Source: Escherichia coli
GTDB lineage: Bacteria; Pseudomonadota; Gammaproteobacteria; Enterobacterales; Enterobacteriaceae
Length of the DNA: 64,000 bases
Direction: 5' to 3' (one strand)
Assembly (NCBI RefSeq): GCF_030013595.1
Contig: NZ_CP122768.1
Shown here: positions 6,857-45,061 of the stretch, piece by piece
Layout: each line of letters opens with the position of its first letter
How positions within the stretch are numbered: the stretch's first letter is position 1
Notes under the pieces: model-generated
Databases searched by the model: none
What the model saw: only the letters and a program-made list of their open reading frames with translations
Told to the model about the DNA's origin: nothing
Translations under genes and position numbers: made by a program

Positions 6857-7261
6857 ATCTACCCTGCTTGTACCATTATGTTATACACCTCTTCAGGAGT
6901 ATTCATAAAACAAGACAAATGTAAAGAACCGTATTGTTTTGTATAATGCAATGGTGCCTAATCGCCAATTAATATAAGCACCATCATTTCTCCCTATTTT
7001 TATATTAGAAGTGACAACGATTTGCAGGGTAATGCAGAGCTGACAATCACAGGTTTCCTTATCGGTTTTTGCATCGCACAACTAAAGCAATAAACTAGCT
7101 CCCGTCATCGGCGAATATGAATTAATTAGCCGGGCTCATAGCTGCATTCGCGTTTTAAGAATAATCCTCCTGCTCTCACCGACTATGCTTAACGTTTAAA
7201 AAAGCATCAGCACTCTCGCAACGCACTCTTATTTTCCCCTTTAGAATACCGGAGGCCTGGT

Positions 7262-7951: not shown

Positions 7952-8904
7952 AGGCGTTTACCTATGAACGAGTGAACACCCCGGCCGAGGCGGCACTTAG
8001 CGCTCAGCGCGTACCCGGCGCAAAATTTATCGCTGGCGGGACCAATCTGCTGGACCTGATGAAGCTGGAAATTGAAACGCCAACCCACCTTATCGATGTG
8101 AACGGGCTCGGGCTCGATAAGATTGAAGTGACCGACGCGGGTGGGCTGCGCATCGGCGCACTGGTACGGAACACCGACCTGGCAGCTCACGAGCGCGTGC
8201 GTCGTGATTATGCGGTACTCTCCCGCGCCCTGCTCGCTGGCGCGTCTGGTCAGTTACGCAATCAGGCAACCACCGCAGGTAATCTGCTCCAGCGCACGCG
8301 CTGCCCCTATTTTTACGACACCAATCAGCCCTGCAATAAGCGCCTGCCCGGAAGCGGCTGCGCGGCACTTGAAGGCTTTAGCCGTCAGCACGCGGTGGTA
8401 GGCGTAAGCGAAGCCTGCATTGCCACCCATCCGAGCGATATGGCGGTCGCAATGCGGTTGCTGGATGCGGTGGTGGAAACCATCACGCCGGAGGGAAAGA
8501 CTCGCAGTATCACACTGGCTGATTTTTATCACCCTCCGGGAAAAACGCCGCACATTGAAACCGCCCTGCTTCCCGGTGAGCTTATCGTTGCGGTGACGTT
8601 ACCTCCGCCGCTCGGCGGAAAACATATCTACCGCAAGGTGCGCGATCGCGCCTCCTACGCCTTTGCCCTTGTATCGGTCGCGGCGATTATTAAGCCTGAC
8701 GGCAGCGGGCGCGTCGCGCTGGGCGGAGTAGCACATAAGCCCTGGCGCATTGAGGCTGCGGATGCTCAGCTATCCCAGGGGGCGCAGGCCGTGTATGACG
8801 CGCTGTTCGCCAGCGCCCATCCCACCGCTGAAAATACCTTTAAACTCCTGTTGGCGAAGCGAACGCTTGCCTCCGTACTGGCTGAAGCGAGGGCACTGGC
8901 ATGA
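7948..8904 (+). CDS. paoB: PaoB, aldehyde oxidoreductase FAD-binding subunit
   Basis: 318 aa, ATGA overlap with paoA; length and operon order match YagS. Confidence 0.9.
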
Positions 8905-11099
8905 AATTTGATAAACCCGCAGGGGAAAACCCGATCGATCAGCTGAAGGTTGTCGGTCGTCCCCATGACCGCATCGACGGACCGCTGAAAACTACCGGCA
9001 CGGCACGCTACGCCTACGAATGGTATGAAGAAGCTCCCAACGCCGCCTATGGTTATATCGTCGGTTCCGCCATTGCCAAAGGATGCCTCACCGCCCTCGA
9101 TACGGACGCCGCGCAAAAAGCGCCGGGCGTACTGGCTGTCATTACCGCCAGTAACGCCGGGGCACTCGGCAAAGGCGACAAAAACACCGCCAGGCTGTTA
9201 GGCGGCCCGACTATTGAGCACTATCATCAGGCCATTGCGCTGGTAGTGGCCGAGACCTTCGAACAGGCGCGAGCGGCGGCCTCGCTGGTGCAGGCGCACT
9301 ATCGCCGTAATAAAGGAGCTTACTCCCTGGCGGACGAGAAACAGGCCGTCAGTCAGCCGCCGGAAGACACGCCCGATAAAAATGTTGGTGACTTTGACGG
9401 GGCTTTCACCTCCGCTGCGGTGAAGATTGATGCTACCTACACGACCCCGGACCAGAGCCATATGGCGATGGAGCCGCATGCCTCGATGGCCGTCTGGGAT
9501 GGGAATAAGCTTACCCTCTGGACCTCAAATCAGATGATTGACTGGTGCCGCACCGATCTGGCAAAAACGCTGAAAGTGCCCGTGGAGAATGTGCGTATTA
9601 TCTCCCCGTATATCGGTGGAGGGTTTGGCGGCAAGCTGTTCCTGAGAAGCGATGCGCTGCTGGCGGCCCTCGCCGCCCGTGCGGTGAAACGTCCGGTTAA
9701 AGTGATGCTCCCCCGCCCCACTATTCCCAATAACACAACGCACCGCCCCGCCACCCTTCAGCACCTGCGTATCGGTGCCGACCAGAGCGGGAAAATCACT
9801 GCTATCTCACATGAAAGCTGGTCCGGAAACCTGCCCGGCGGCACGCCGGAAACGGCGGTACAGCAAAGCGAATTTCTTTACGCAGGGGCGAATCGTCATA
9901 CCGGCCTGCGGCTCGCCACGCTTGATTTGCCGGAAGGGAACGCCATGCGTGCGCCCGGCGAAGCCCCCGGTCTGATGGCGCTCGAAATCGCGATCGATGA
10001 ACTGGCGGAAAAAGCAGGCATCGATCCCGTCGAGTTTCGCATCCTGAATGACACTCAGGTTGACCCCGCCGACCCGACGCGCCGCTTCTCTCGCCGTCAG
10101 CTTATTGAGTGCTTGCGCACCGGAGCGGATAAATTTGGCTGGAAGCAGCGCAACGCCACACCCGGACAGGTACGCGACGGGGAGTGGCTAGTCGGCCACG
10201 GTGTTGCGGCGGGCTTTCGCAATAATCTGCTGGAAAAATCGGGTGCTCGGGTTCACCTAGAACAAAACGGCACCGTTACCGTGGAAACGGACATGACCGA
10301 TATTGGCACCGGCAGCTACACAATTCTGGCTCAGACGGCAGCGGAAATGCTTGGCGTACCGCTGGAGCAGGTTGCGGTTCACCTCGGCGATTCCAGTTTC
10401 CCGGTTTCTGCGGGTTCTGGTGGACAATGGGGCGCGAATACCTCCACCTCCGGCGTTTACGCCGCCTGTGTGAAACTTCGCGAAATGATTGCCTCGGCAG
10501 TCGGGTTTGATCCTGGGCAGTCGCAGTTTGCCGACGGCAAGATTACCAACGGTACCCGAAGCGCCACGCTACATGAGGCCACCGCAGGCGGCAGGCTGAC
10601 AGCGGAAGAGAGCATTGAATTCGGAACACTGAGCAAGGAGTACCAGCAATCGACCTTTGCCGGGCATTTTGTGGAGGTCGGCGTGCATAGCGCGACGGGA
10701 GAAGTTCGGGTCCGGCGTATGCTCGCTGTGTGTGCTGCAGGACGCATCCTGAATCCGAAAACCGCACGCAGCCAGGTCATTGGCGCAATGACTATGGGCA
10801 TGGGCGCGGCACTGATGGAGGAGCTGGCGGTGGATGACCGTTTGGGCTACTTCGTTAATCACGATATGGCGGGGTATGAGGTGCCGGTTCATGCGGATAT
10901 CCCAAAACAGGAGGTGATTTTCCTGGATGATACCGACCCCATATCCTCCCCGATGAAGGCCAAAGGTGTCGGTGAGCTGGGCCTGTGCGGCGTGAGCGCG
11001 GCTATCGCCAACGCGGTGTATAACGCCACCGGTATTCGGGTACGGGATTATCCCATCACTCTGGATAAGCTGCTCGATAAGCTGCCGGATGTGGTTTAA
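8901..11099 (+). CDS. paoC: PaoC, aldehyde oxidoreductase molybdopterin-binding subunit
   Basis: 732 aa, ATGA overlap with paoB; length and order match YagR. Confidence 0.9.
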
Positions 11100-11108
11100 G
11101 GAGGAACA

Positions 11109-12062
11109 ATGTCATACCCACTTTTTGACAAAGACGAGCACTGGCATAAGCCAGAGCAGGCGTTTCTCACCGATGACCACCGGACCATTCTGCGCTTCGC
11201 CGTAGAGGCGCTAATGTCCGGTAAAGGAGCGGTGCTGGTGACGCTGGTGGAAATACGCGGCGGCGCGGCGCGCCCGCTCGGGGCTCAGATGGTGGTGCGC
11301 GAAGATGGTCGTTACTGCGGTTTTGTCTCTGGCGGCTGCGTGGAGGCCGCTGCCGCTTTTGAAGCGCTGGAGATGATGGGCTCAGGCCGCGATCGCGAAA
11401 TTCGCTATGGCGAAGGTTCGCCGTGGTTTGACATCGTTCTGCCCTGCGGCGGTGGGATCACGCTGACGCTCCATAAACTACGCTCGGCACAGCCTCTGCT
11501 CGCCGTGCTGAACCGCCTGGAACAGAGAAAACCGGCGGGTCTGCGCTACGATCCGCAAGCACAATCGCTGGTGTGCCTGCCCACGCAAACCCGGACAGGC
11601 TGGAATCTCAATGGCTTTGAGGTGGGGTTCAGGCCATGCGTCAGGCTGATGATTTACGGACGTTCTCTTGAGGCGCAGGCAACCGCGAGTCTTGCAGCAG
11701 CCACAGGCTATGACAGCCATATCTTCGATCTTTTTCCGGCCTCAGCCAGCGCTCAGATCGATACCGATACGGCGGTCATTTTGCTGTGCCATGATCTCAA
11801 CCGGGAGCTGCCAGTGTTGCAGGCCGCGCGAGAAGCAAAACCCTTTTATCTCGGCGCATTGGGCAGCTATCGAACCCACACTTTACGTCTGCAAAAGCTC
11901 CACGAGCTGGGATGGTCCAGGGAGGAGACAGCGCAAATCCGGGCACCCGTCGGGATATTCCCCAAAGCCCGGGATGCGCATACTCTGGCACTCTCCGTGC
12001 TGGCAGAAGTCGCCGCTGTACGTCTCCGTCAGGAGGATTCATGCCTGCCCCCATCGTCCTGA
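11109..12062 (+). CDS. paoD: PaoD, molybdenum cofactor insertion chaperone (XdhC-like)
   Basis: 317 aa directly downstream of paoC; length and order match YagQ. Confidence 0.85.
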   Translation: MSYPLFDKDEHWHKPEQAFLTDDHRTILRFAVEALMSGKGAVLVTLVEIRGGAARPLGAQMVVREDGRYCGFVSGGCVEAAAAFEALEMMGSGRDREIRYGEGSPWFDIVLPCGGGITLTLHKLRSAQPLLAVLNRLEQRKPAGLRYDPQAQSLVCLPTQTRTGWNLNGFEVGFRPCVRLMIYGRSLEAQATASLAAATGYDSHIFDLFPASASAQIDTDTAVILLCHDLNRELPVLQAAREAKPFYLGALGSYRTHTLRLQKLHELGWSREETAQIRAPVGIFPKARDAHTLALSVLAEVAAVRLRQEDSCLPPSS

Positions 12063-12173
12063 TCCTCGCGGCGGGGCGTGGGGAGCGCTTCCTCACCTCC
12101 GGGGGAAATACCCATAAATTAAGAGAAAAATCTGCAGTAGCCGTTTAAGAAAATCACCTAAATCGTTTAAAAG

Positions 12174-12197
12174 AGCGCCCAACCCATAGTGGGCGCT
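12174..12197. terminator. Stem-loop between convergent paoD and MFS transporter gene
   Basis: Inverted repeat agcgccca / tgggcgct; a T-rich run follows on the minus strand. Confidence 0.45.
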
Positions 12198-12240
12198 TAT
12201 CGCCTTGTGTAACTTATTCAGCAACGCGCGCCTCGCCGGA

Positions 12241-13434
12241 CTAAAGCGCACCGGCCTTCTGGCGTGCGGTAACAAAGGTCAGTACGCCAGCGCAAAGGAG
12301 CAGCACGCTACTCATAGCAAACGTGCTCTGCCAGCCAAGGCGGTCAAACACAATGCCTCCTGCCGTTGATCCAAGGGCGATGGCGAGCTGAATCACCGCG
12401 ACCATGAGCCCGCCTCCGGCTTCGGCGTTGTCAGGCAACGTACGCGCAATCCATGTCCACCATCCGGTTGGCGCGGCGGTGGCCAGCATGCCCCAGAGTC
12501 CTAACAGCAGCGAGACCGTCCAGACGTGATGCCCGGTAAGCATCAGACCGATGGCAATGACGGCCATCAGTCCGGGTATGGCCATCAGCGTGGGGTAGAA
12601 TTTTCTGTTGAGAAATGCCGAAACAACCAGCGTGCCAATAAAACCGGCCACGCCGATAATCAGCAAAATCGACGACAAGCCTAAGGAATTAACCCGTGTC
12701 ACCGACTCCAGAAACGGGCGCACATAGGTGAATAGCGCAAACTGCCCCATGAAAAACAGGCCACAAGCTATCATGCCGACCACAACCATGCGGCGGCTAA
12801 ATAAGCGGAATACCGCGCCACATGAAGTGTGGCTTTTATTCGCATCCATGCTTGGCAGGCTGATGCACTGCCAGATAAAGGCGACAACCGCGATGGGCAC
12901 CAGGCACAAGAAAGCGCCTCGCCATCCGACCGTAGCCCCCAGATAGCTTCCCAGCGGTGCGGCCACGACCGTCGCCAGCGCATTACCGGCGTTGAAAATT
13001 GCCAGCGCACGCGTGACCTGATGCTGCGGCACCAGACGAATCGCCGTTGCCGCTGACATCGACCAGAATCCGCCAATAGCCACACCAATCATCGCACGAC
13101 CGACCATATACATCAGATAACTGGAAGCCAGCGCAATAATAAGCCCCGATACGGCCATCAGAACCGTCATCCCCAGCAGCAGGAACTTACGATTCATCTT
13201 TCCAGCTAGCGTTGAAAGCGTCAGGCTGGTCAGAACCGCCAGCGCGCCGGAGATAGCAATCCCCTGCCCTGCCAGCCCCTCCGTCACGCCTAAATCGCGG
13301 GTAATCGGCGTGAGCAGGCTGACGGGCATAAATTCAGAAGCAATCAGCACAAACACGCACAGGGTCATGGCAAAAATACCGCCCCAGTATGCGCGCTGAT
13401 GATGAGGTGATAGTGTTTGGCTTAGTGTCGACAT
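12241..13434 (-). CDS. MFS family transporter
   Basis: 397 aa, about 12 predicted hydrophobic helices, glycine-rich MFS-like loops. Confidence 0.8.
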   Translation of the reverse strand: MSTLSQTLSPHHQRAYWGGIFAMTLCVFVLIASEFMPVSLLTPITRDLGVTEGLAGQGIAISGALAVLTSLTLSTLAGKMNRKFLLLGMTVLMAVSGLIIALASSYLMYMVGRAMIGVAIGGFWSMSAATAIRLVPQHQVTRALAIFNAGNALATVVAAPLGSYLGATVGWRGAFLCLVPIAVVAFIWQCISLPSMDANKSHTSCGAVFRLFSRRMVVVGMIACGLFFMGQFALFTYVRPFLESVTRVNSLGLSSILLIIGVAGFIGTLVVSAFLNRKFYPTLMAIPGLMAVIAIGLMLTGHHVWTVSLLLGLWGMLATAAPTGWWTWIARTLPDNAEAGGGLMVAVIQLAIALGSTAGGIVFDRLGWQSTFAMSSVLLLCAGVLTFVTARQKAGAL

Positions 13435-13509
13435 AGTGAAATTTCACAAAGATCAGGATAAAAGCCACCAGCCTATGGCCGATGGCTTTGCATCAATTCA
13501 GGAGAGGTT

Positions 13510-14646
13510 TTATTTCAGTTTGGTCTGGAAAAATTGTTCGAACTTCGCGAAAGGTATTTTTCCGGCCACGTTATCGTACAGGTCCACGTGATTTGCCCCT
13601 GGTACCACCACCAACTCTTTGTCGTTACTGCCAACCGCCTTGTAAGCATCTTCAGCAAAATAACGTGAATGCGCTTTCTCACCGGTCACAATCAGCGTCG
13701 GAATGGTGATTTCACTGGCGTAGCTCAACAGCGGCATATTCATAAATGACAGCGGCATCGTTGCCGTCCACGCCCCGGTAGAGTTAACGGAACGTTCGTG
13801 GAAGCCGCGCGGCATGCGATAGTAGTCAAAGAACTCTTTCAGTACCGGATGAGGATTTGCCGGCAGCGTTTCTGGCAGAATGCGCTCGCCCGCACTGACC
13901 TTGCCGTTGCTGTCGACATTAATATCATGACCACCGTGAGCGAACGTTCCGCTCTTCGCATCCTTCCAGCGCTGTTCATTCAGATATTGCAGAACAGCAC
14001 GACGGTCGGCGGTAGAATAACGGTCTTTGCCATCCCCCACACCATGACCCATCGCCCGGCTCATGTCATACATCACGCTGGTAGCTACCGCTTTAACGCG
14101 GGTATCCATCGCTACGTCGTTCAGCGCCATGCCGCCCCAGCCACAAATACCGAGCAGCCCGATACGGTTGCGATCTACCTCTTTTTGCAGCCCTAAGAAA
14201 TCCACCGCCGCGCTGAAATCTTCAGTGTTGATATCCGGTGAGGCGACGTTTCGCGGATAGCCGCCGCTTTCCCCGGTGTAAGAAGGATCGAACGCCAAGG
14301 TAACAAACCCTCGTTCCGCCAGCGTCTGCGCATACAGGCCGCTGGATTGCTCTTTCACCGCGCCAAATGGCCCACTGACCGCAATCGCCGCCAGCTTGCG
14401 ATCGCCACGGTCTTTAGGCAGGTAAAGATCGCCCACTAAGGTGATGCCATATCGGTTCGGGAACGAGACTTTACGGTGATCGACTTTCTGGCTCTCGGCG
14501 AACGTTTTATCCCATTTATCTGTCATGGACACAGGGGCATTAGGATTGGTTGAATCAGCATAACTCATTGTCGTGACTCCACTTAATGATGCGAAAAGCA
14601 GCATGGTCGGCATCGCGGTTTTTAGCGTGCGGGTGAAGGCTTTCAT
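13510..14646 (-). CDS. Secreted alpha/beta hydrolase (dienelactone hydrolase / S15 peptidase-like)
   Basis: About 378 aa with N-terminal signal peptide, GICGWGG nucleophile-elbow-like motif; start codon uncertain (ORF track starts at 14667). Confidence 0.7.
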   Translation of the reverse strand: MKAFTRTLKTAMPTMLLFASLSGVTTMSYADSTNPNAPVSMTDKWDKTFAESQKVDHRKVSFPNRYGITLVGDLYLPKDRGDRKLAAIAVSGPFGAVKEQSSGLYAQTLAERGFVTLAFDPSYTGESGGYPRNVASPDINTEDFSAAVDFLGLQKEVDRNRIGLLGICGWGGMALNDVAMDTRVKAVATSVMYDMSRAMGHGVGDGKDRYSTADRRAVLQYLNEQRWKDAKSGTFAHGGHDINVDSNGKVSAGERILPETLPANPHPVLKEFFDYYRMPRGFHERSVNSTGAWTATMPLSFMNMPLLSYASEITIPTLIVTGEKAHSRYFAEDAYKAVGSNDKELVVVPGANHVDLYDNVAGKIPFAKFEQFFQTKLK

Positions 14647-14832
14647 AAAAATCCCCATAAAAAACAACAGAGAGATACAGGTTTCCGACGGACAACGCTG
14701 CGGTGCTTTGCTTTGATGGGGTCATTATAGTGAGCAGAATTAGTGCTGATTAGGGGGCGATTAATGCTAAGATTAATACCATATTGTTATAAATTAATGT
14801 GGAGATTGCCGGCATGAAGGGGGGATGTTTCA

Positions 14833-15717
14833 ATGGCGAAAAGGGAGAACTACAACGAGCTGTACCTGTTTATGCAGGTGGTGCGAGAAGGCAGCTTTAC
14901 CGCAGCGGCTCAGCGGCTGGGTCTTGCTCAGTCAGGAGTCAGCCGTTCTGTTCGCGAGCTTGAAGAAAGGCTGGGCGTCCAGCTGCTAGTGCGCACCACG
15001 CGTAAACTGTCGCTGACACAAGCAGGCGAGCAGCTCTACCAGAAGACGGCATCTGGATTTGAAATGTTAGATCTTGGGCTTGCCACGCTGGCGCACTATC
15101 GAGAGACGCCCTCCGGCACGGTGCGTATCAATGCCAGCCAGCACGCGATTGATAAATGCCTGCTGCCAAAGCTGGCGGTATTTAAACAGAGATATCCTGA
15201 TATCCGGCTTGAACTGATAAATGAGAGCCGGTTCGTCGATATCATCGAGGAAAGATTCGATGCAGGTGTCCGCCTGGGGCCTGAAGTCGGCCAGGGTATG
15301 GTCGCGGTACGCATCACGCCCGATATGGAGATGGCAATTGTGGGGACTCCGGAACATTTTCGTCGCTATGGTTTTCCGCAAACCCCGGCGGATTTAAAGG
15401 CGCATCCCTGTATCGCCTATCAGTTTGCCGACGGCAGCGTATACCAGTGGGAACTCAATCAGGATGATAAAAAAATCACTCATCGCCCTGAAGGGCAATG
15501 GGCCCTATCCGACAGCTATATGGAAGCAGAAGCCGCCCGGCTGGGCCTCGGATTGGCCTATGTTCCTGTTGAACTGGTCGCGGATGATTTAGAACACGGT
15601 AAGCTTATCAGGGTGTTGCAGCGTTACAGCCTGCGAATGGAGGGATTGTTTCTCTATTACCCTCATCGCAACGTCTCCCCCGCCCTGCGGATGGTCATTG
15701 ATACATTGAAAATCTGA
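14833..15717 (+). CDS. LysR-family transcriptional regulator
   Basis: 294 aa; N-terminal HTH (FTAAAQRLGLAQSGVSRSVRELEERLGVQLL) and LysR substrate-binding region. Confidence 0.85.
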   Translation: MAKRENYNELYLFMQVVREGSFTAAAQRLGLAQSGVSRSVRELEERLGVQLLVRTTRKLSLTQAGEQLYQKTASGFEMLDLGLATLAHYRETPSGTVRINASQHAIDKCLLPKLAVFKQRYPDIRLELINESRFVDIIEERFDAGVRLGPEVGQGMVAVRITPDMEMAIVGTPEHFRRYGFPQTPADLKAHPCIAYQFADGSVYQWELNQDDKKITHRPEGQWALSDSYMEAEAARLGLGLAYVPVELVADDLEHGKLIRVLQRYSLRMEGLFLYYPHRNVSPALRMVIDTLKI

Positions 15718-16301
15718 ACGTTAACAACGACCGACTCTTCACTGTGCAAAATTGTGTCAGGTAGTCCCTCTGCGTTCAATTCCAGGGTCTGTACAGTCTG
15801 CTTTGAGCGAGAAAGAGGGGACTATCCAGCAATGGAGATCACCCAAAAGAAAAAACCACCTGGCTCCCTCGACAACCTTCATCCAGGCATTTAGCCTCAA
15901 TCAACATTTTTATATCTGTCAGGTTACTTCATGATGAAAACTGATCATTATCGTTGTTTTTGTTGCAATAGTAGAATACGCGTATTTATTCCTCCATCTC
16001 TATTAATAACGGCAATAAACTGTTCACTTCACTGATATTTAAAATATGTATCCTTTTCAAGCTGTTCAGCGGCGTAAGAAAAAGTATTAATTATGAATTC
16101 GATGATTTAACCATATCTGTCTGATTGGTAATCATCCGTGATTAATGCTGGTCTATTGATTACGCCAGCATTAACCGCTTAGGGATGTATTCTTCCTGTT
16201 CATATAGCCCTCGAAAAAGAGAGAAAATAAAACTGTGTCCAATATTAATTTACCACTCCAGACCGAAGCATCGGTGGGATTAGCAGAATGATCTGCGTCT
16301 G

Positions 16302-16517
16302 ATGTTGAGGCTGGCTCTTGCCGGCGCAGGCATAACAATTGCCACTCAGGAAACTTTCAGGCCATATATTGAAAGCGGTAAGCTTGTATCGCTGCTTGAT
16401 GACTTTCTTCCACAATTTCCGGGCTTCTATCTGTATTTCCCACAGCGTCGCAATATTGCACCAAAGCTCCGCGCCCTGATTGACCACGTCAAGGAATGGC
16501 GGCAGCAATTGGCTTAA
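16302..16517 (+). pseudogene. C-terminal fragment of a second LysR-family regulator (possibly the yagP-type remnant)
   Basis: 71 aa ORF resembles only the C-terminal end of LysR proteins; its motif FYLYFPQRRNIAPKLRALIDHV parallels LFLYYPHRNVSPALRMVIDTL at the end of the intact LysR at 14833-15717; no N-terminal HTH; abuts the island repeat. Confidence 0.5.
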
Positions 16518-16634
16518 ATGTCTGCACCTGCACTGCCTGATGTCAGAACAGTATTTTGATGAATTGCCAGGGTTACAATGGCACAAATACGGCACAGGAG
16601 GAAAATGTGGTGTAATTGAATGTGAGGTAACTAC

Positions 16635-16690
16635 TTGATTTAAATGGTGCCGATAAGAGGAGTCGAACCTCCGACCTTCGCATTACGAAT
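16635..16690 (-). repeat. Island-junction direct repeat: partial copy of the tRNA-Thr 3' end (about 47 nt) plus 9 bp of flank, not a functional tRNA
   Basis: 56 bp match to 44976-45031 with 2 mismatches; sequence diverges from thrW beyond the anticodon region. Confidence 0.85.
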
Positions 16691-16855
16691 TAGCGAGACC
16701 AGTGATTCAAGATGTTCACATCCGTTTCAGCATACAATAAAAAATATATAAAAATCAACAAAATAGACATAAATGCAGTATCAAGATGTTTCGCCTTGTT
16801 TCTGATGATATCATGTTAAATGTGTACCCCACTGTGTACCCAAAAGGCTGAAGAT

Positions 16856-18175
16856 ATGACTTTTACTATTACACAAGACAGACAATTGGCTTCATTGACC
16901 GTTACTAAAGAAGAAAAAGAAATCTTATTTGCTGTAAAATCTAAAGCTGGGGGAGGACTCTTTATACGCGTTCGTTATGGTAGCGACAATAAAAGCTGGA
17001 TTTATCGTTATCGAATAGCTCAAAAGCCAGCTAAATTAACACTAGGTAGTTACCCTGCCATGGGATTAGCTCAAGCTCGTAAAGCTCATGCGGATGCAAT
17101 TGAATTAGTAAGAAAAGGTATAGATCCTCGTCATATTAGAAAAAATGAAAAACAAAAAAATGAACAAATGATTATTTACTCTGAATTATGGAAAGATTGG
17201 ATAGAATTCAGAAAGACAAGTAAACCAATTAGCACCAGACCCCTTGCAGATTATGAAGGGACTTATCACCGCCACCTTGAAAAAGCATTAGGAAACCTTC
17301 GCATTGACGAACTTACCAAAAGCGTTATTTTTGAACATCTCAGTAATGTAAGAAAAACCAGTTCTGAAGCAGTTCGTAAAGGATTAATTATTCTAAATAT
17401 GACTCTTGATCATGCCAACTTACAGGGTATGCTTGAGCATAACCCAGCACGACTGCTCAAACCAGCAATGTTTGGTGCATCGATGAATAAACCTCGCGAG
17501 CGATGGCTTCCTGAGAATGAACTCCGGATGCTATGGAAGGCTTTGGATGATGCTACTGTTGGAGGAGGCTCCATTGCATCTGGTGGCTATGGAATTTCCT
17601 CTAGTGTGGTATTATCTCATTCTGTCGCAAATGCACTCCGTTTGATTATTTTCACAGGAGTGCGCCGCTCTGAAGCGGCACAAATGCGCTGGGATCAAAT
17701 TAATGGAGAGCGTTGGACCATACCAGCCACTAAAAATGGGAAAAGCCATATTGTTACTTTACATCCGTATATGCTTTCTTTAATAAAAACACAACGTGAA
17801 TTCACTGAAGGTGCATATGTTTTTGGTTCTACTAGCAAACCTGGCTTTCCCATCACAAATGACGCTCTGACTCGCGCGTTAGAAAGGGTTCGCTCTAAGT
17901 ATCTAGCCGAACTTACTCCATTTTCTCCTCATGATCTGCGTAGAAGTGTTGCGACTGGATGCGCTGAATACCTTGATGCTCCAGAGCGCCTAATAGAGTT
18001 ACTGTTAAATCATGTACCCAAAGACCGTTTAATACGAACATATCAAGTCGGACAACAAGCTGAAAAATTAAAAAATTTATTTATAGAATGGGGGAATTTT
18101 ATTATGAATAACGTCATTACTGTGCAGCAGAATGCTCCGGATAATGTTATTCATATAAAATTTGGGAACAGATGA
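16856..18175 (+). CDS. P4-type tyrosine integrase
   Basis: N-terminal arm-binding pattern GGGLFIRVRYGSDNKSWIYRYR...KLTLGSYP...LAQARK; C-terminal catalytic region with R...H..RR and Y; start set at second Met with weak SD (ORF track starts at 16820). Confidence 0.85.
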   Translation: MTFTITQDRQLASLTVTKEEKEILFAVKSKAGGGLFIRVRYGSDNKSWIYRYRIAQKPAKLTLGSYPAMGLAQARKAHADAIELVRKGIDPRHIRKNEKQKNEQMIIYSELWKDWIEFRKTSKPISTRPLADYEGTYHRHLEKALGNLRIDELTKSVIFEHLSNVRKTSSEAVRKGLIILNMTLDHANLQGMLEHNPARLLKPAMFGASMNKPRERWLPENELRMLWKALDDATVGGGSIASGGYGISSSVVLSHSVANALRLIIFTGVRRSEAAQMRWDQINGERWTIPATKNGKSHIVTLHPYMLSLIKTQREFTEGAYVFGSTSKPGFPITNDALTRALERVRSKYLAELTPFSPHDLRRSVATGCAEYLDAPERLIELLLNHVPKDRLIRTYQVGQQAEKLKNLFIEWGNFIMNNVITVQQNAPDNVIHIKFGNR

Positions 18176-18267
18176 TAAAAATACATGCATGGTCTGAGAT
18201 ACCCTGTCTACTCGACCATGCAGTATGGTTCAACTAAATCAGTCACAACAAGAAATGATTAGTTTTA

Positions 18268-19116
18268 TTAGATATTGTATGGGATTATTTCTGGATAATA
18301 CTTCGCAATGATGTCATTTAGCCGATCAACCAGTTCTGGTTTTCTGAACGTGATATGCGCGGAGCCCTTCTTAAAGTATCTGATGCTGAACATCTCATCT
18401 TCATAGCAGGCTTTGCCCTGAACGGAGCGGATGTGATCATCCAGCCGAATAATGATATTTTCCCGGCTGTCGGGGATCGGTTTGCCGCTGAACAGGTGCA
18501 GCATTCTTTCCAGGTCGGCAAGTCGATCTGCCTGTTGCCCGGTGATAAGATGCAATCCCCACCGGTCCCACCTCACCAGATTGTTGACGATAATTTTACT
18601 GCCAAATTTACAGGGGCAATTGGTTTTGTAATCCCAGCTCAGTCCCCTGAAGACGTTGATGCCCCCACGCTCAAACACTTCATCCTTATTCTGGTGTAGT
18701 TGCTCAAACGTACTCAGTATATTCTCTTCACTGATTTCCGGAAAATTATCGTACTCCAGTGACCGGTACCATGTATCACGGGCCTGTGCATCCATTAAGG
18801 AAAGCATCCCTGAACGTTGCATCAGGTCACGCCAGATTTCACGGTCAAGGTTGCGGGTGATGGCTTTCATTGCCGTTTCAGGTTTCTCCATCAGCCAGCA
18901 ACCGCAGCGAAAATCCTGTTTCATGGCCCAGTCCGGAGCAGTTTTACCTCCAATACTTTCTGTCATTGCTGATATTTCAGCCAGTTGCCGGATAAGTGTG
19001 TCGATTTGCAGCAGTGTGCTCTTTCGTACAGCCAAAATGTGGCGGATACTGGTTGAGCAGATAACGTCCGTATGCCCGTTGACCACTTCCGGACGGGAGA
19101 TTGTGATGTCTGACAT
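18268..19116 (-). CDS. DUF4942-like protein of CP4-type islands
   Basis: 282 aa ORF downstream of the cbtA module, a position where DUF4942 genes occur in CP4-44/CP4-57-like elements; recalled family resemblance only. Confidence 0.55.
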   Translation of the reverse strand: MSDITISRPEVVNGHTDVICSTSIRHILAVRKSTLLQIDTLIRQLAEISAMTESIGGKTAPDWAMKQDFRCGCWLMEKPETAMKAITRNLDREIWRDLMQRSGMLSLMDAQARDTWYRSLEYDNFPEISEENILSTFEQLHQNKDEVFERGGINVFRGLSWDYKTNCPCKFGSKIIVNNLVRWDRWGLHLITGQQADRLADLERMLHLFSGKPIPDSRENIIIRLDDHIRSVQGKACYEDEMFSIRYFKKGSAHITFRKPELVDRLNDIIAKYYPEIIPYNI

Positions 19117-19200
19117 TATCGGTTTCCCTTTTGGTTTATAAACGAAAACGCCAGCCCTGTTCAGGCTGACGTCAGTGGAATGAAGTATGGTGAGTGATAT

Positions 19201-19623
19201 TTACCGCTTCTGGTGCAGAAGCTGCAGATGACGAAGAGTACGGACATCCTCCCGGGCCTGTTCGATACAGGGCAACAGTGCTACCGAATCCGTTTTATCC
19301 TCATCGTTGTCAAAGATAATTCCCGATTCGCAGTCGATATTGTCCTGCAGCCACGCAATGAGGATATCCAGCGCTGTTTCAGTGGTTAATGGCATCACGC
19401 TCTGTATCACTGTATTGTCTTCCGGCAACTGATGAGGGCTGGCAGAAGTCGCCGGTGTTTCGGTAGCGTCACGTTCATTCACCACGCGGAGTGAATAACC
19501 GTTTTCAGCGACTTTGTTAATCAGTTCAGCGAGCTCAATACCATCGACGTCAACGACAATGCGCCCCATGTTCAGCGCCTGCGCATTAATGCTGTCGGCT
19601 TCCAGCGTCAGGGCCAGTTTCAT
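19201..19623 (-). CDS. YeeW-like small protein downstream of cbtA
   Basis: 140 aa ORF overlapping the cbtA stop by 4 nt; context matches yeeW. Confidence 0.5.
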   Translation of the reverse strand: MKLALTLEADSINAQALNMGRIVVDVDGIELAELINKVAENGYSLRVVNERDATETPATSASPHQLPEDNTVIQSVMPLTTETALDILIAWLQDNIDCESGIIFDNDEDKTDSVALLPCIEQAREDVRTLRHLQLLHQKR

Positions 19624-44975: not shown

Positions 44976-45031
44976 TTGATTTAAATGGTGCCGATAATAG
45001 GAGTCGAACCTACGACCTTCGCATTACGAAT
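44976..45031 (-). repeat. Island-junction direct repeat overlapping the 3' part of thrW
   Basis: 56 bp match to 16635-16690 with 2 mismatches. Confidence 0.85.
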
Positions 45032-45061
45032 GCGCTGCTCTACCAACTGAGCTATATCGGC
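44986..45061 (-). tRNA. thrW: tRNA-Thr (anticodon CGT)
   Basis: Reverse complement reads GCCGATATAGCTCAGTTGGTAGAGCAGCGCATTCGTAATGCGAAGGTCGTAGGTTCGACTCCTATTATCGGCACCA; 76 nt with CCA end, located next to proA. Confidence 0.95.

Follow-up and report, generated by a model that had tools for sequence, protein, structure and literature searches.

The paoD–thrW interval in the Escherichia coli DNA analysed here (a stretch of 64,000 nucleotides, hereafter the window) is a variable portion of the E. coli chromosome that is unremarkable and already carries annotation. We favour with high confidence a joint view in which the E. coli backbone from paoD to thrW is polymorphic through deletions, this interval representing one of the alleles, and in which the surviving genes act as a cassette. 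These three genes, encoding an MFS transporter, an alpha/beta hydrolase and a LysR-type regulator (LysR1) and referred to below as the trio, have all stayed intact and together make up a conserved cassette. The comparison of alleles accounts for yagP of K-12 as the scar of a 6.1-kb deletion, and it shows repeated small deletions eroding the DNA immediately beyond the thrW attachment site, whichever island occupies thrW. Beyond such bookkeeping the significance is small and specialists will find no surprise here, while the three-gene cassette, carried elsewhere by phages and plasmids, could merit a functional test. Our search of the literature on yagP and thrW found nothing covering this interval. 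The alleles were compared across 5,426 complete E. coli genomes, their structures being taken from RefSeq annotation and alignments.

Anatomy of the interval

From paoD towards the thrW junction the interval comprises the MFS transporter, the hydrolase, LysR1, an AT-rich spacer with a hairpin, and a fragment of a second LysR gene, LysR2 (Table 1). The gene thrW itself lies at 44986-45061; the backbone ends on the right at the repeat at 16635-16690, and the integrase encoded at 16820-18175 is that of the current island. A prior sequence-only reading had described an MFS transporter, a secreted hydrolase and a full LysR regulator between paoD and the junction, all of which are present with coordinates that agree within a base or two, and it had correctly placed the end of a second LysR fragment 118 bp before the repeat (stop at 16517, repeat from 16635). 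A repeat search of 12000-16900 returned short chance families only, and a promoter scan gave fewer promoter-like sites than shuffled sequences did.

Table 1. Features of the paoD–thrW interval, in window coordinates
Feature	Position	Strand	Detail
CATAA, left breakpoint of the K-12-type 6,129-bp deletion	12113..12117		comparison L003/MG1655/L002
MFS transporter, DHA1-like efflux type	12241..13434	-	Pfam MFS_1, E 1e-37
Alpha/beta hydrolase, PA2218/YcjY family	13510..14646	-	PDB 2hdw and 5xb6 matches; 378 aa (likely start)
Divergent control region, hydrolase/LysR1	14647..14832		conservation across six copies
LysR1, complete LysR-type regulator	14833..15717	+	294 aa; HTH_1 and LysR_substrate domains
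AT-rich spacer	15718..16286		569 bp, 39.4% GC
ykgR pseudogene remnant	15938..16054	+	92% identity to genuine ykgR loci (3' part)
Perfect 10-bp hairpin, 13-nt loop	16142..16174		arms 16142-16151 and 16165-16174
AATGA, join of the 2,051-bp deletion	16287..16291		alignment to long allele L002
LysR2 C-terminal fragment	16287..16517	+	codons 224-299 and stop, in frame
Direct repeat, thrW 3' end plus 10 bp (island att site)	16635..16690		56 bp, 96% identical to 44976-45031

None of the three trio proteins reaches an NCBIfam equivalog cut-off. The MFS ORF encodes 397 aa, shortened to 375 aa in RefSeq by the use of an internal start. Its best NCBIfam match is NepI, and we rejected an identity as this purine ribonucleoside efflux pump (NF007578) at 290.5 bits, far under the 584-bit cut-off; by domain content the protein is assignable as an MFS_1 member only. 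The full hydrolase ORF spans 13510-14667, and its true start is likely the ATG at 14646, where Shine-Dalgarno sequence and start codon align across six copies. The protein matches 2hdw (PA2218) at E 4e-125 and 5xb6 (YcjY) at E 2e-43, with similarity over its full length; a candidate identity as the quorum-quenching lactonase UilS (NF047920) was dropped, the match being partial and scoring 64 bits where the cut-off is 400. Judged by eye, the N-terminus MKAFTRTLKTAMPTMLLFASLSGVTTMSYA|D resembles a Sec signal peptide, and the hydrolase is presumably secreted to the periplasm. The nucleophile elbow reads GICGWGG, with Cys replacing the usual Ser, and a C-terminal GANHVD motif is visible in the alignment; the putative hydrolytic chemistry may be of either the Cys or the Ser type.

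Both LysR1 domains are full length (PF00126, E 1e-23; PF03466, E 5e-35), and in all copies the gene is divergent from the hydrolase–MFS pair. The control region between them averages 80% column identity over six copies, and the coding DNA of the other copies is 69-86% identical to the window in four diverged ones and about 97% in the O157-like one. Within the control region an interrupted dyad, AGCA-N7-TGCT at 14733-14747, is invariant in all six copies and represents a candidate LysR operator. A 10-mer, GATTAATGCT, common to this region and to the hairpin was discarded as a chance-level match.

The spacer had been read as about 580 bp of AT-rich non-coding DNA. Its AT-richness stands, but it is not purely non-coding, since it encloses a ykgR remnant that the earlier reading overlooked. 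Codons 12-33 and the stop of ykgR are preserved at 15938-16006, with some 48 bp from the 3' flank of ykgR behind them; there is an in-frame TGA upstream and no start codon, and RefSeq/PGAP calls the equivalent stretch a partial YkgR pseudogene in loci L001, L002 and L043. The hairpin, too, had been noticed before and exists as described, except that it ends at 16174 and not 16175. To its right, the 76 codons of the LysR2 fragment keep positions 137-207 of the Pfam LysR_substrate model and lack the HTH domain; it is therefore a pseudogene fragment.

Deletion alleles between paoD and thrW

The suggestion that this interval is variable is borne out by at least five alleles among the 5,426 genomes. 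The genes paoCD are present in 3,596 genomes, which divide into 2,684 with the K-12 junction and 912 with the trio, whilst both pao and the trio block are missing from the other 1,830. The K-12-type arrangement is thus the commonest, accounting for 75% of pao-positive genomes; MG1655 has this exact junction, and its paoD–intF interval holds yagP alone, in agreement with the earlier reading. A long allele is found in 388 genomes, O157:H7 among them, in the order paoD, MFS, hydrolase, LysR1, ykgR remnant, hairpin, small ORF, SDR oxidoreductase, LysR2, thrW. The identical join seen in the window is shared by 179 genomes, and a third junction, with its breakpoint inside the hairpin, occurs in 296; roughly 49 alleles fall into none of these classes.

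The long allele is the only one in which LysR2 is intact (299 aa, both domains), and it supplies the parent sequence for both truncated forms. The fragment in the window differs from O157 LysR2 by one amino acid over 76 codons, and relative to the long allele a 2,051-bp deletion has removed the 92-aa ORF, the SDR oxidoreductase and LysR2 codons 1-223. The truncations begin at codon 224 in the window and at codon 188 in K-12, both in phase 0 of LysR2, and each join falls at a 5-bp microhomology, AA(T/C)GA in the window and CATAA in K-12, within different codons of the one gene. The CATAA site is intact in the window, and all DNA to its right has been retained. It had escaped the earlier reading that the fragment in the window is a separate truncation of the parent gene of yagP. 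The two short forms arose by independent events: an illegitimate-recombination deletion of 2,051 bp at a 5-bp microhomology left the 76-codon LysR2 stump of the window allele, and a separate deletion of 6,129 bp in the K-12 lineage, from 55 bp past paoD to LysR2 codon 187, left yagP. The junction of the window adjoins two different thrW islands and is therefore independent of the present island. As pao and the block are both absent from 1,830 genomes, the long allele may itself be a derived acquisition.

Two alternative readings were weighed. The high frequency of the K-12-type arrangement might suggest that paoD–yagP is ancestral and that the block is an insertion in the window strain. This we consider highly improbable: the HTH domain and 187 N-terminal codons, both of which stand in frame in the long allele, are missing from yagP, an insertion could not recreate these missing codons, and the annotated yagP ORF is a chimera that crosses the junction from the 3' end of paoD. 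The insertion reading is thus refuted by the analysis of the junctions, and since yagP begins at codon 188 of a LysR2 gene that the long allele preserves whole, K-12 is a deletion derivative. The other alternative concerns the hairpin, which could serve a function, for instance in termination or as a recombination site, and not be a chance feature of AT-rich DNA. Its folding energy is -23.3 kcal/mol (MFE; z = -4.7), the chance expectation for 12241-16634 is about 0.09 hairpins of this kind, and 1% of simulated spacers hold one. The stem is moreover identical in the O157-type allele, where a substitution affects the loop only, and the third allele breaks within the 3' arm, at 16168/16169. A lone coincidence of a breakpoint is weak evidence, however, and the hairpin has no T-run on either strand, so that it does not qualify as a Rho-independent terminator (GC-rich stem plus T-run); it is also absent from the output of the terminator scan. 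It is single-copy and not a dispersed repeat, and it has no match in Rfam, a scan of 11900-17000 at E<=1 returning one sub-threshold chance match only. We regard a function for the hairpin as rather doubtful.

The three-gene cassette and its occurrence elsewhere

How the cassette is transcribed and regulated, whether its hydrolase is secreted and which class of substrate it handles are inferred as follows. The hydrolase gene lies 75 bp upstream of the MFS gene on the same strand, and the two are probably co-transcribed. LysR1 would sense a small molecule and switch on this pair, and the PA2218/YcjY-family hydrolase, acting in the periplasm, would constitute with the DHA1-type MFS pump a module for the breakdown or detoxification of small molecules and their export. 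PADLOC found no defence-system match among the proteins of the trio and the long allele.

Outside the paoD–thrW locus the trio is demonstrably mobile cargo. Its gene order and orientation are kept in Serratia and Klebsiella, as well as in a prophage of E. coli, a Yersinia phage and IMG/VR contigs. In Serratia marcescens it lies 180 bp from thrW, in opposite orientation and with 86% DNA identity; in 33 E. coli genomes it resides in a lambdoid prophage, beside the integrase; in P2-like Yersinia phages it sits between tail-fibre and sheath genes; and it occurs in four IMG/VR contigs and on plasmids of several genera. Homology among the copies ends at the gene ends, without terminal repeats. One could picture the trio as a self-contained 3.4-kb cassette delivered again and again by temperate phages (P2-like and lambdoid) and plasmids across Enterobacterales, including into thrW-adjacent DNA, with the paoD–thrW copy as a domesticated survivor. 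We think this unlikely; if it were true, the host would gain a selectable trait, for example the capacity to degrade a toxic compound of the lactone or ester type and pump it out.

The sequence-only reading had wondered whether the region is older island debris, and had named as the opposing case that the three genes are core in most E. coli with K-12 a deletion derivative. The latter half of this opposing case agrees with the junctions described above, whereas the former does not, the trio being carried by 912 of the 5,426 genomes (17%) and hence not core in E. coli. As for debris, the trio, perhaps together with the SDR–LysR2 pair, might be the cargo of an earlier thrW-integrated element that has since lost integrase and att site, later integrations having displaced the cargo outward. 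The patchy distribution in E. coli and the copies on mobile elements and beside thrW in Serratia fit such a history. A scan for PaoD in species-representative genomes recovered 26 loci, all from genera other than Escherichia and none with the trio adjoining paoD, so that trio–pao synteny is seen in no other genus; the ykgR fragment and a 34%-GC ORF of the long allele likewise indicate past rearrangement. Against this, 12063-16634 contains no integrase or recombinase ORF or domain, and the whole window contains no additional thrW-like repeat, the best candidates being chance 8-9-mers left of 16635. No AT-rich signature flanks the trio. Base composition is mixed: the trio genes have 53-57% GC, near the pao genes (59-60%) and unlike the 40%-GC integrase, and the spacer has 39% and the window overall 50%. 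The absence of terminal repeats from the trio homology also argues against the idea, and deletions account for all polymorphism observed within E. coli. An origin from an earlier element is thus a tentative option that we would not favour, and deletion from a longer allele is the reading that we retain.

Comparison with known loci and proteins

Among known loci, a close counterpart to the LysR2 fragment is yagP of K-12 (b0282), a C-terminal remnant of a LysR-family gene situated between paoD and intF/CP4-6. The two share a parent gene and a position by the thrW att repeat, and differ at about 2 of 76 amino acids. K-12 has kept codons 188-299 and lost the trio, whereas the window has kept codons 224-299 together with the trio; yagP is joined to the region downstream of paoD and the window fragment to the spacer, and the latter is accordingly not the yagP allele. 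The long allele of O157:H7, O55:H7 and O145 is collinear with the window over its left 5.3 kb at 96.7% identity, ykgR remnant and hairpin included, and has 2,051 bp that the window lacks, encoding the 92-aa ORF, the SDR oxidoreductase and the 299-aa LysR2.

Amongst proteins of solved structure the hydrolase matches Pseudomonas aeruginosa PA2218 (2hdw) over nearly its full length and shares its GICGWGG elbow. As a lead, we presume that the MFS transporter and LysR1 are possible homologues of PA2219 and PA2220. PA2219 (opdE) is a membrane protein (PMC12431658), and a 4,150-bp fragment with PA2218 and PA2219 is missing in one clinical strain (PMC8088628). E. coli YcjY (5xb6) shares the fold family, and its aligned elbow, GICAGAG, likewise contains Cys, but it has neither the N-terminal extension nor the signal peptide of the window hydrolase and is a distant paralogue.

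Phage P2 carries Z/fun at the site between tail-fibre and tail-sheath genes, and in Yersinia phage vB_YpM_115 and the IMG/VR contigs the whole trio lies between a tail-fibre assembly gene and a sheath gene. In contrast to such phage morons, the trio of the window has no phage genes around it; it is bordered by pao on one side and the thrW att site on the other, and is not part of the current island.

The paoD-thrW interval and its alleles

Every feature that the sequence-only reading had listed between paoD and the thrW repeat is present: an MFS transporter, a hydrolase and a complete LysR regulator (LysR1), together referred to here as the trio, followed by a spacer, a hairpin and a C-terminal fragment of a second LysR gene, LysR2. 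The observation thus stood, but the interpretation placed upon it is only partly supported. The interval shows an indel polymorphism of an ordinary kind, already covered by annotation, beside a tRNA integration hot spot and holds no new type of element.

Features between paoC and thrW, in window coordinates
Feature	Position	Strand	Remarks
paoC	8901-11099
paoD	11109-12062
MFS transporter ORF	12241-13434	-
Alpha/beta hydrolase ORF	13510-14667	-	likely true start ATG at 14646
LysR1, complete regulator	14833-15717	+
Spacer after LysR1			569 bp, 39.4% GC
Terminator-like stem	15849-15870	-	just downstream of LysR1
ykgR remnant	15938-16054		117 bp
Perfect 10-bp hairpin	16142-16174
LysR2 C-terminal fragment	end 16517		118 bp short of thrW repeat
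thrW 3'-end repeat	16635-16690		56 bp; start of thrW-integrated island
Island integrase	16820-18175
thrW	44986-45061

Comparison of 11800-17000 by megablast with 5,426 complete E. coli genomes, and then a closer look at representative loci, revealed a long allele carried by O157:H7, O55:H7, O145 and others. Past the ykgR remnant and the hairpin, this allele continues with a 92-aa ORF, an SDR oxidoreductase gene and LysR2, which is intact at 299 aa with both domains and ends at the thrW site. The window is collinear with it to 16291 and again from 16287, lacks 2,051 bp and enters LysR2 at codon 224, the join falling on AATGA/AACGA. The K-12-type allele is collinear to 12117 (55 bp past paoD), resumes at LysR2 codon 188 and lacks 6,129 bp, with CATAA at both sides; MG1655 has the identical junction. 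Its yagP RefSeq CDS (136 aa; L044 5382-5792) is a chimeric ORF across this join that starts in the 3' end of paoD, its first 24 codons being an alternative frame over that end and the downstream DNA and the rest coming from LysR2. Each of the two short alleles retains its own in-frame C-terminal part of LysR2, which the long allele has in full. Change has therefore run towards deletion, and the comparison indicates that the window-type and K-12-type alleles arose by separate, independent deletions from a long-type allele.

In the collection paoCD is present in 3,596 genomes, a number exactly equal to the sum of those with the K-12-type junction (2,684) and those with the trio (912). The long-allele-specific segment occurs in 388 genomes and the window-type junction in 179; a further 296 carry a hairpin-break junction, which leaves about 49 other partial forms by difference. 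The hairpin-break allele keeps the trio and is interrupted at 16168/16169 in the 3' arm of the hairpin (L004 10360), where an AbiE toxin-antitoxin pair (AbiEii/AbiEi) and a reverse-transcriptase island, with a 3.2-kb reverse-transcriptase gene, replace the LysR2 fragment and the thrW repeat. The remaining 1,830 of the 5,426 genomes lack paoABCD and everything on to thrW; in the examples examined (L039, L040) homology ends at about 7017-7020, between yagU and paoA, and an integrase remnant (a pseudogene fragment) is followed by a thrW island such as the vat island. In L040 some 44 bp homologous to 16591-16634 persist beside the att repeat.

The thrW islands bordering the window-type junction are of at least two kinds, one with the integrase found in the window and the other with a retron St85 system and an Ogr/Delta-type gene, so the 2,051-bp deletion is unrelated to the present island. 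To the right of the interval (16820-19623 and on), the present island opens with the tyrosine integrase, behind which come genes for DUF4942, DUF957 and DUF5983 proteins and for a toxin of the CbtA type, an arrangement similar to that at the ends of CP4-6/CP4-44-like cryptic prophages in K-12.

The spacer and the hairpin

The spacer is AT-rich as described but not wholly non-coding in origin, for it holds a partial duplicate of ykgR, the gene for a small membrane protein. This remnant shares 92% identity with genuine ykgR loci. It spans codons 12-33 with the stop and runs on for about 48 bp into the 3' flank; a start codon is absent, and an in-frame TGA lies directly upstream. The genuine gene lies outside the window, past the ecp operon and about 10 kb from yagU (L039/L040). 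The terminator-like stem, which has a T-run, would fit transcripts coming from the right, for example those of the long allele's SDR and small-ORF genes.

The hairpin stands out statistically (z = -4.7, with about 0.09 such hairpins expected by chance in the region) and is kept in the long allele. It lacks a T-run and was not called in the terminator scan; its sole notable property is that the hairpin-break allele is interrupted within it.

Mobility of the trio

The sequence-only reading had also suggested that the interval might be older island debris. The trio is clearly mobile elsewhere, as a cassette travelling in phages, a prophage and plasmids. Hydrolase homologues with 85-95% amino-acid identity occur across the Enterobacterales as far as Serratia, Yersinia and Erwinia. 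Serratia marcescens has the whole trio (86% DNA identity) 180 bp from thrW, adjoining proA-proB in reversed orientation. A second trio copy, 77-78% identical, is found in 33 complete E. coli genomes in that identity band; in the examples examined (L037/L038, 6946-11814) it resides inside a lambdoid prophage directly beside the integrase, beyond which lie host genes for a HAD-family hydrolase, an acetyltransferase and DNA polymerase III psi (HolD-like domain) and, about 3 kb further on, tRNA-Leu(CAG). Among deposited P2-like Yersinia phages, two have the hydrolase gene, and in the one examined, vB_YpM_115 (OR545056.1, L041 4946-8508), the whole trio sits between tail-fibre assembly and tail-sheath genes, as it does in the P2-like phage loci L045-L048 and L054. 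The trio is also whole on four IMG/VR contigs. The MFS protein of the phage trio, at 72% amino-acid identity, has diverged further than its hydrolase and LysR partners (84-88%), a difference suggestive of a mosaic history. Copies 73-75% identical lie on plasmids of Klebsiella, Salmonella, Kosakonia and Pantoea. One E. coli MS 69-1 record, 'plasmid unnamed3' (NZ_CP146678.1, 64,057 bp), holds ecp, ykgJ, yagU, paoABCD and the trio and is probably a mis-assigned chromosomal contig.

In none of the other pao-carrying genera scanned was the trio found next to paoD, also in keeping with a travelling cassette. Against an island origin of the sequence as it stands, 12063-16634 shows none of the hallmarks checked: it contains no recombinase ORF or domain and no second thrW-like repeat, and the trio genes (53-57% GC) are similar in composition to the adjoining pao genes, unlike the 40%-GC integrase. 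Given its mobility elsewhere and the lack of hallmarks here, it is plausible that the trio was ultimately acquired by horizontal transfer. The label of old island debris is unproven for the present sequence and we consider it rather unlikely.

Predicted functions of the trio

Every copy has the genes in the same order and orientation, the LysR gene diverging from the hydrolase-MFS pair. Between them lies a 186-bp control region, which is conserved better than the coding DNA and includes an invariant AGCA-N7-TGCT dyad (14733-14747). The hydrolase most likely starts at ATG 14646 and would then have 378 aa with a typical predicted Sec signal peptide; this start codon and its Shine-Dalgarno sequence line up across six diverged copies, and most other sources, like every diverged copy, back this form. 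The RefSeq/PGAP call (L001 4715-5773) begins at an internal Met, yielding 352 aa and losing the predicted signal peptide. The trio proteins matched no known defence system and the interval matched no RNA family. Our best guess is that LysR1 would activate a periplasmic hydrolase and an efflux pump directed at a small molecule of the ester or lactone type. The closest matches of the MFS protein are NepI, sugar-efflux and Cmx-type exporters, but it scores well below their cut-offs and is assigned to none of them. The hydrolase, which has a Cys at the nucleophile-elbow position (GICGWGG), matches the structural-genomics protein PA2218 (2hdw; E 4e-125) and also E. coli YcjY (5xb6).
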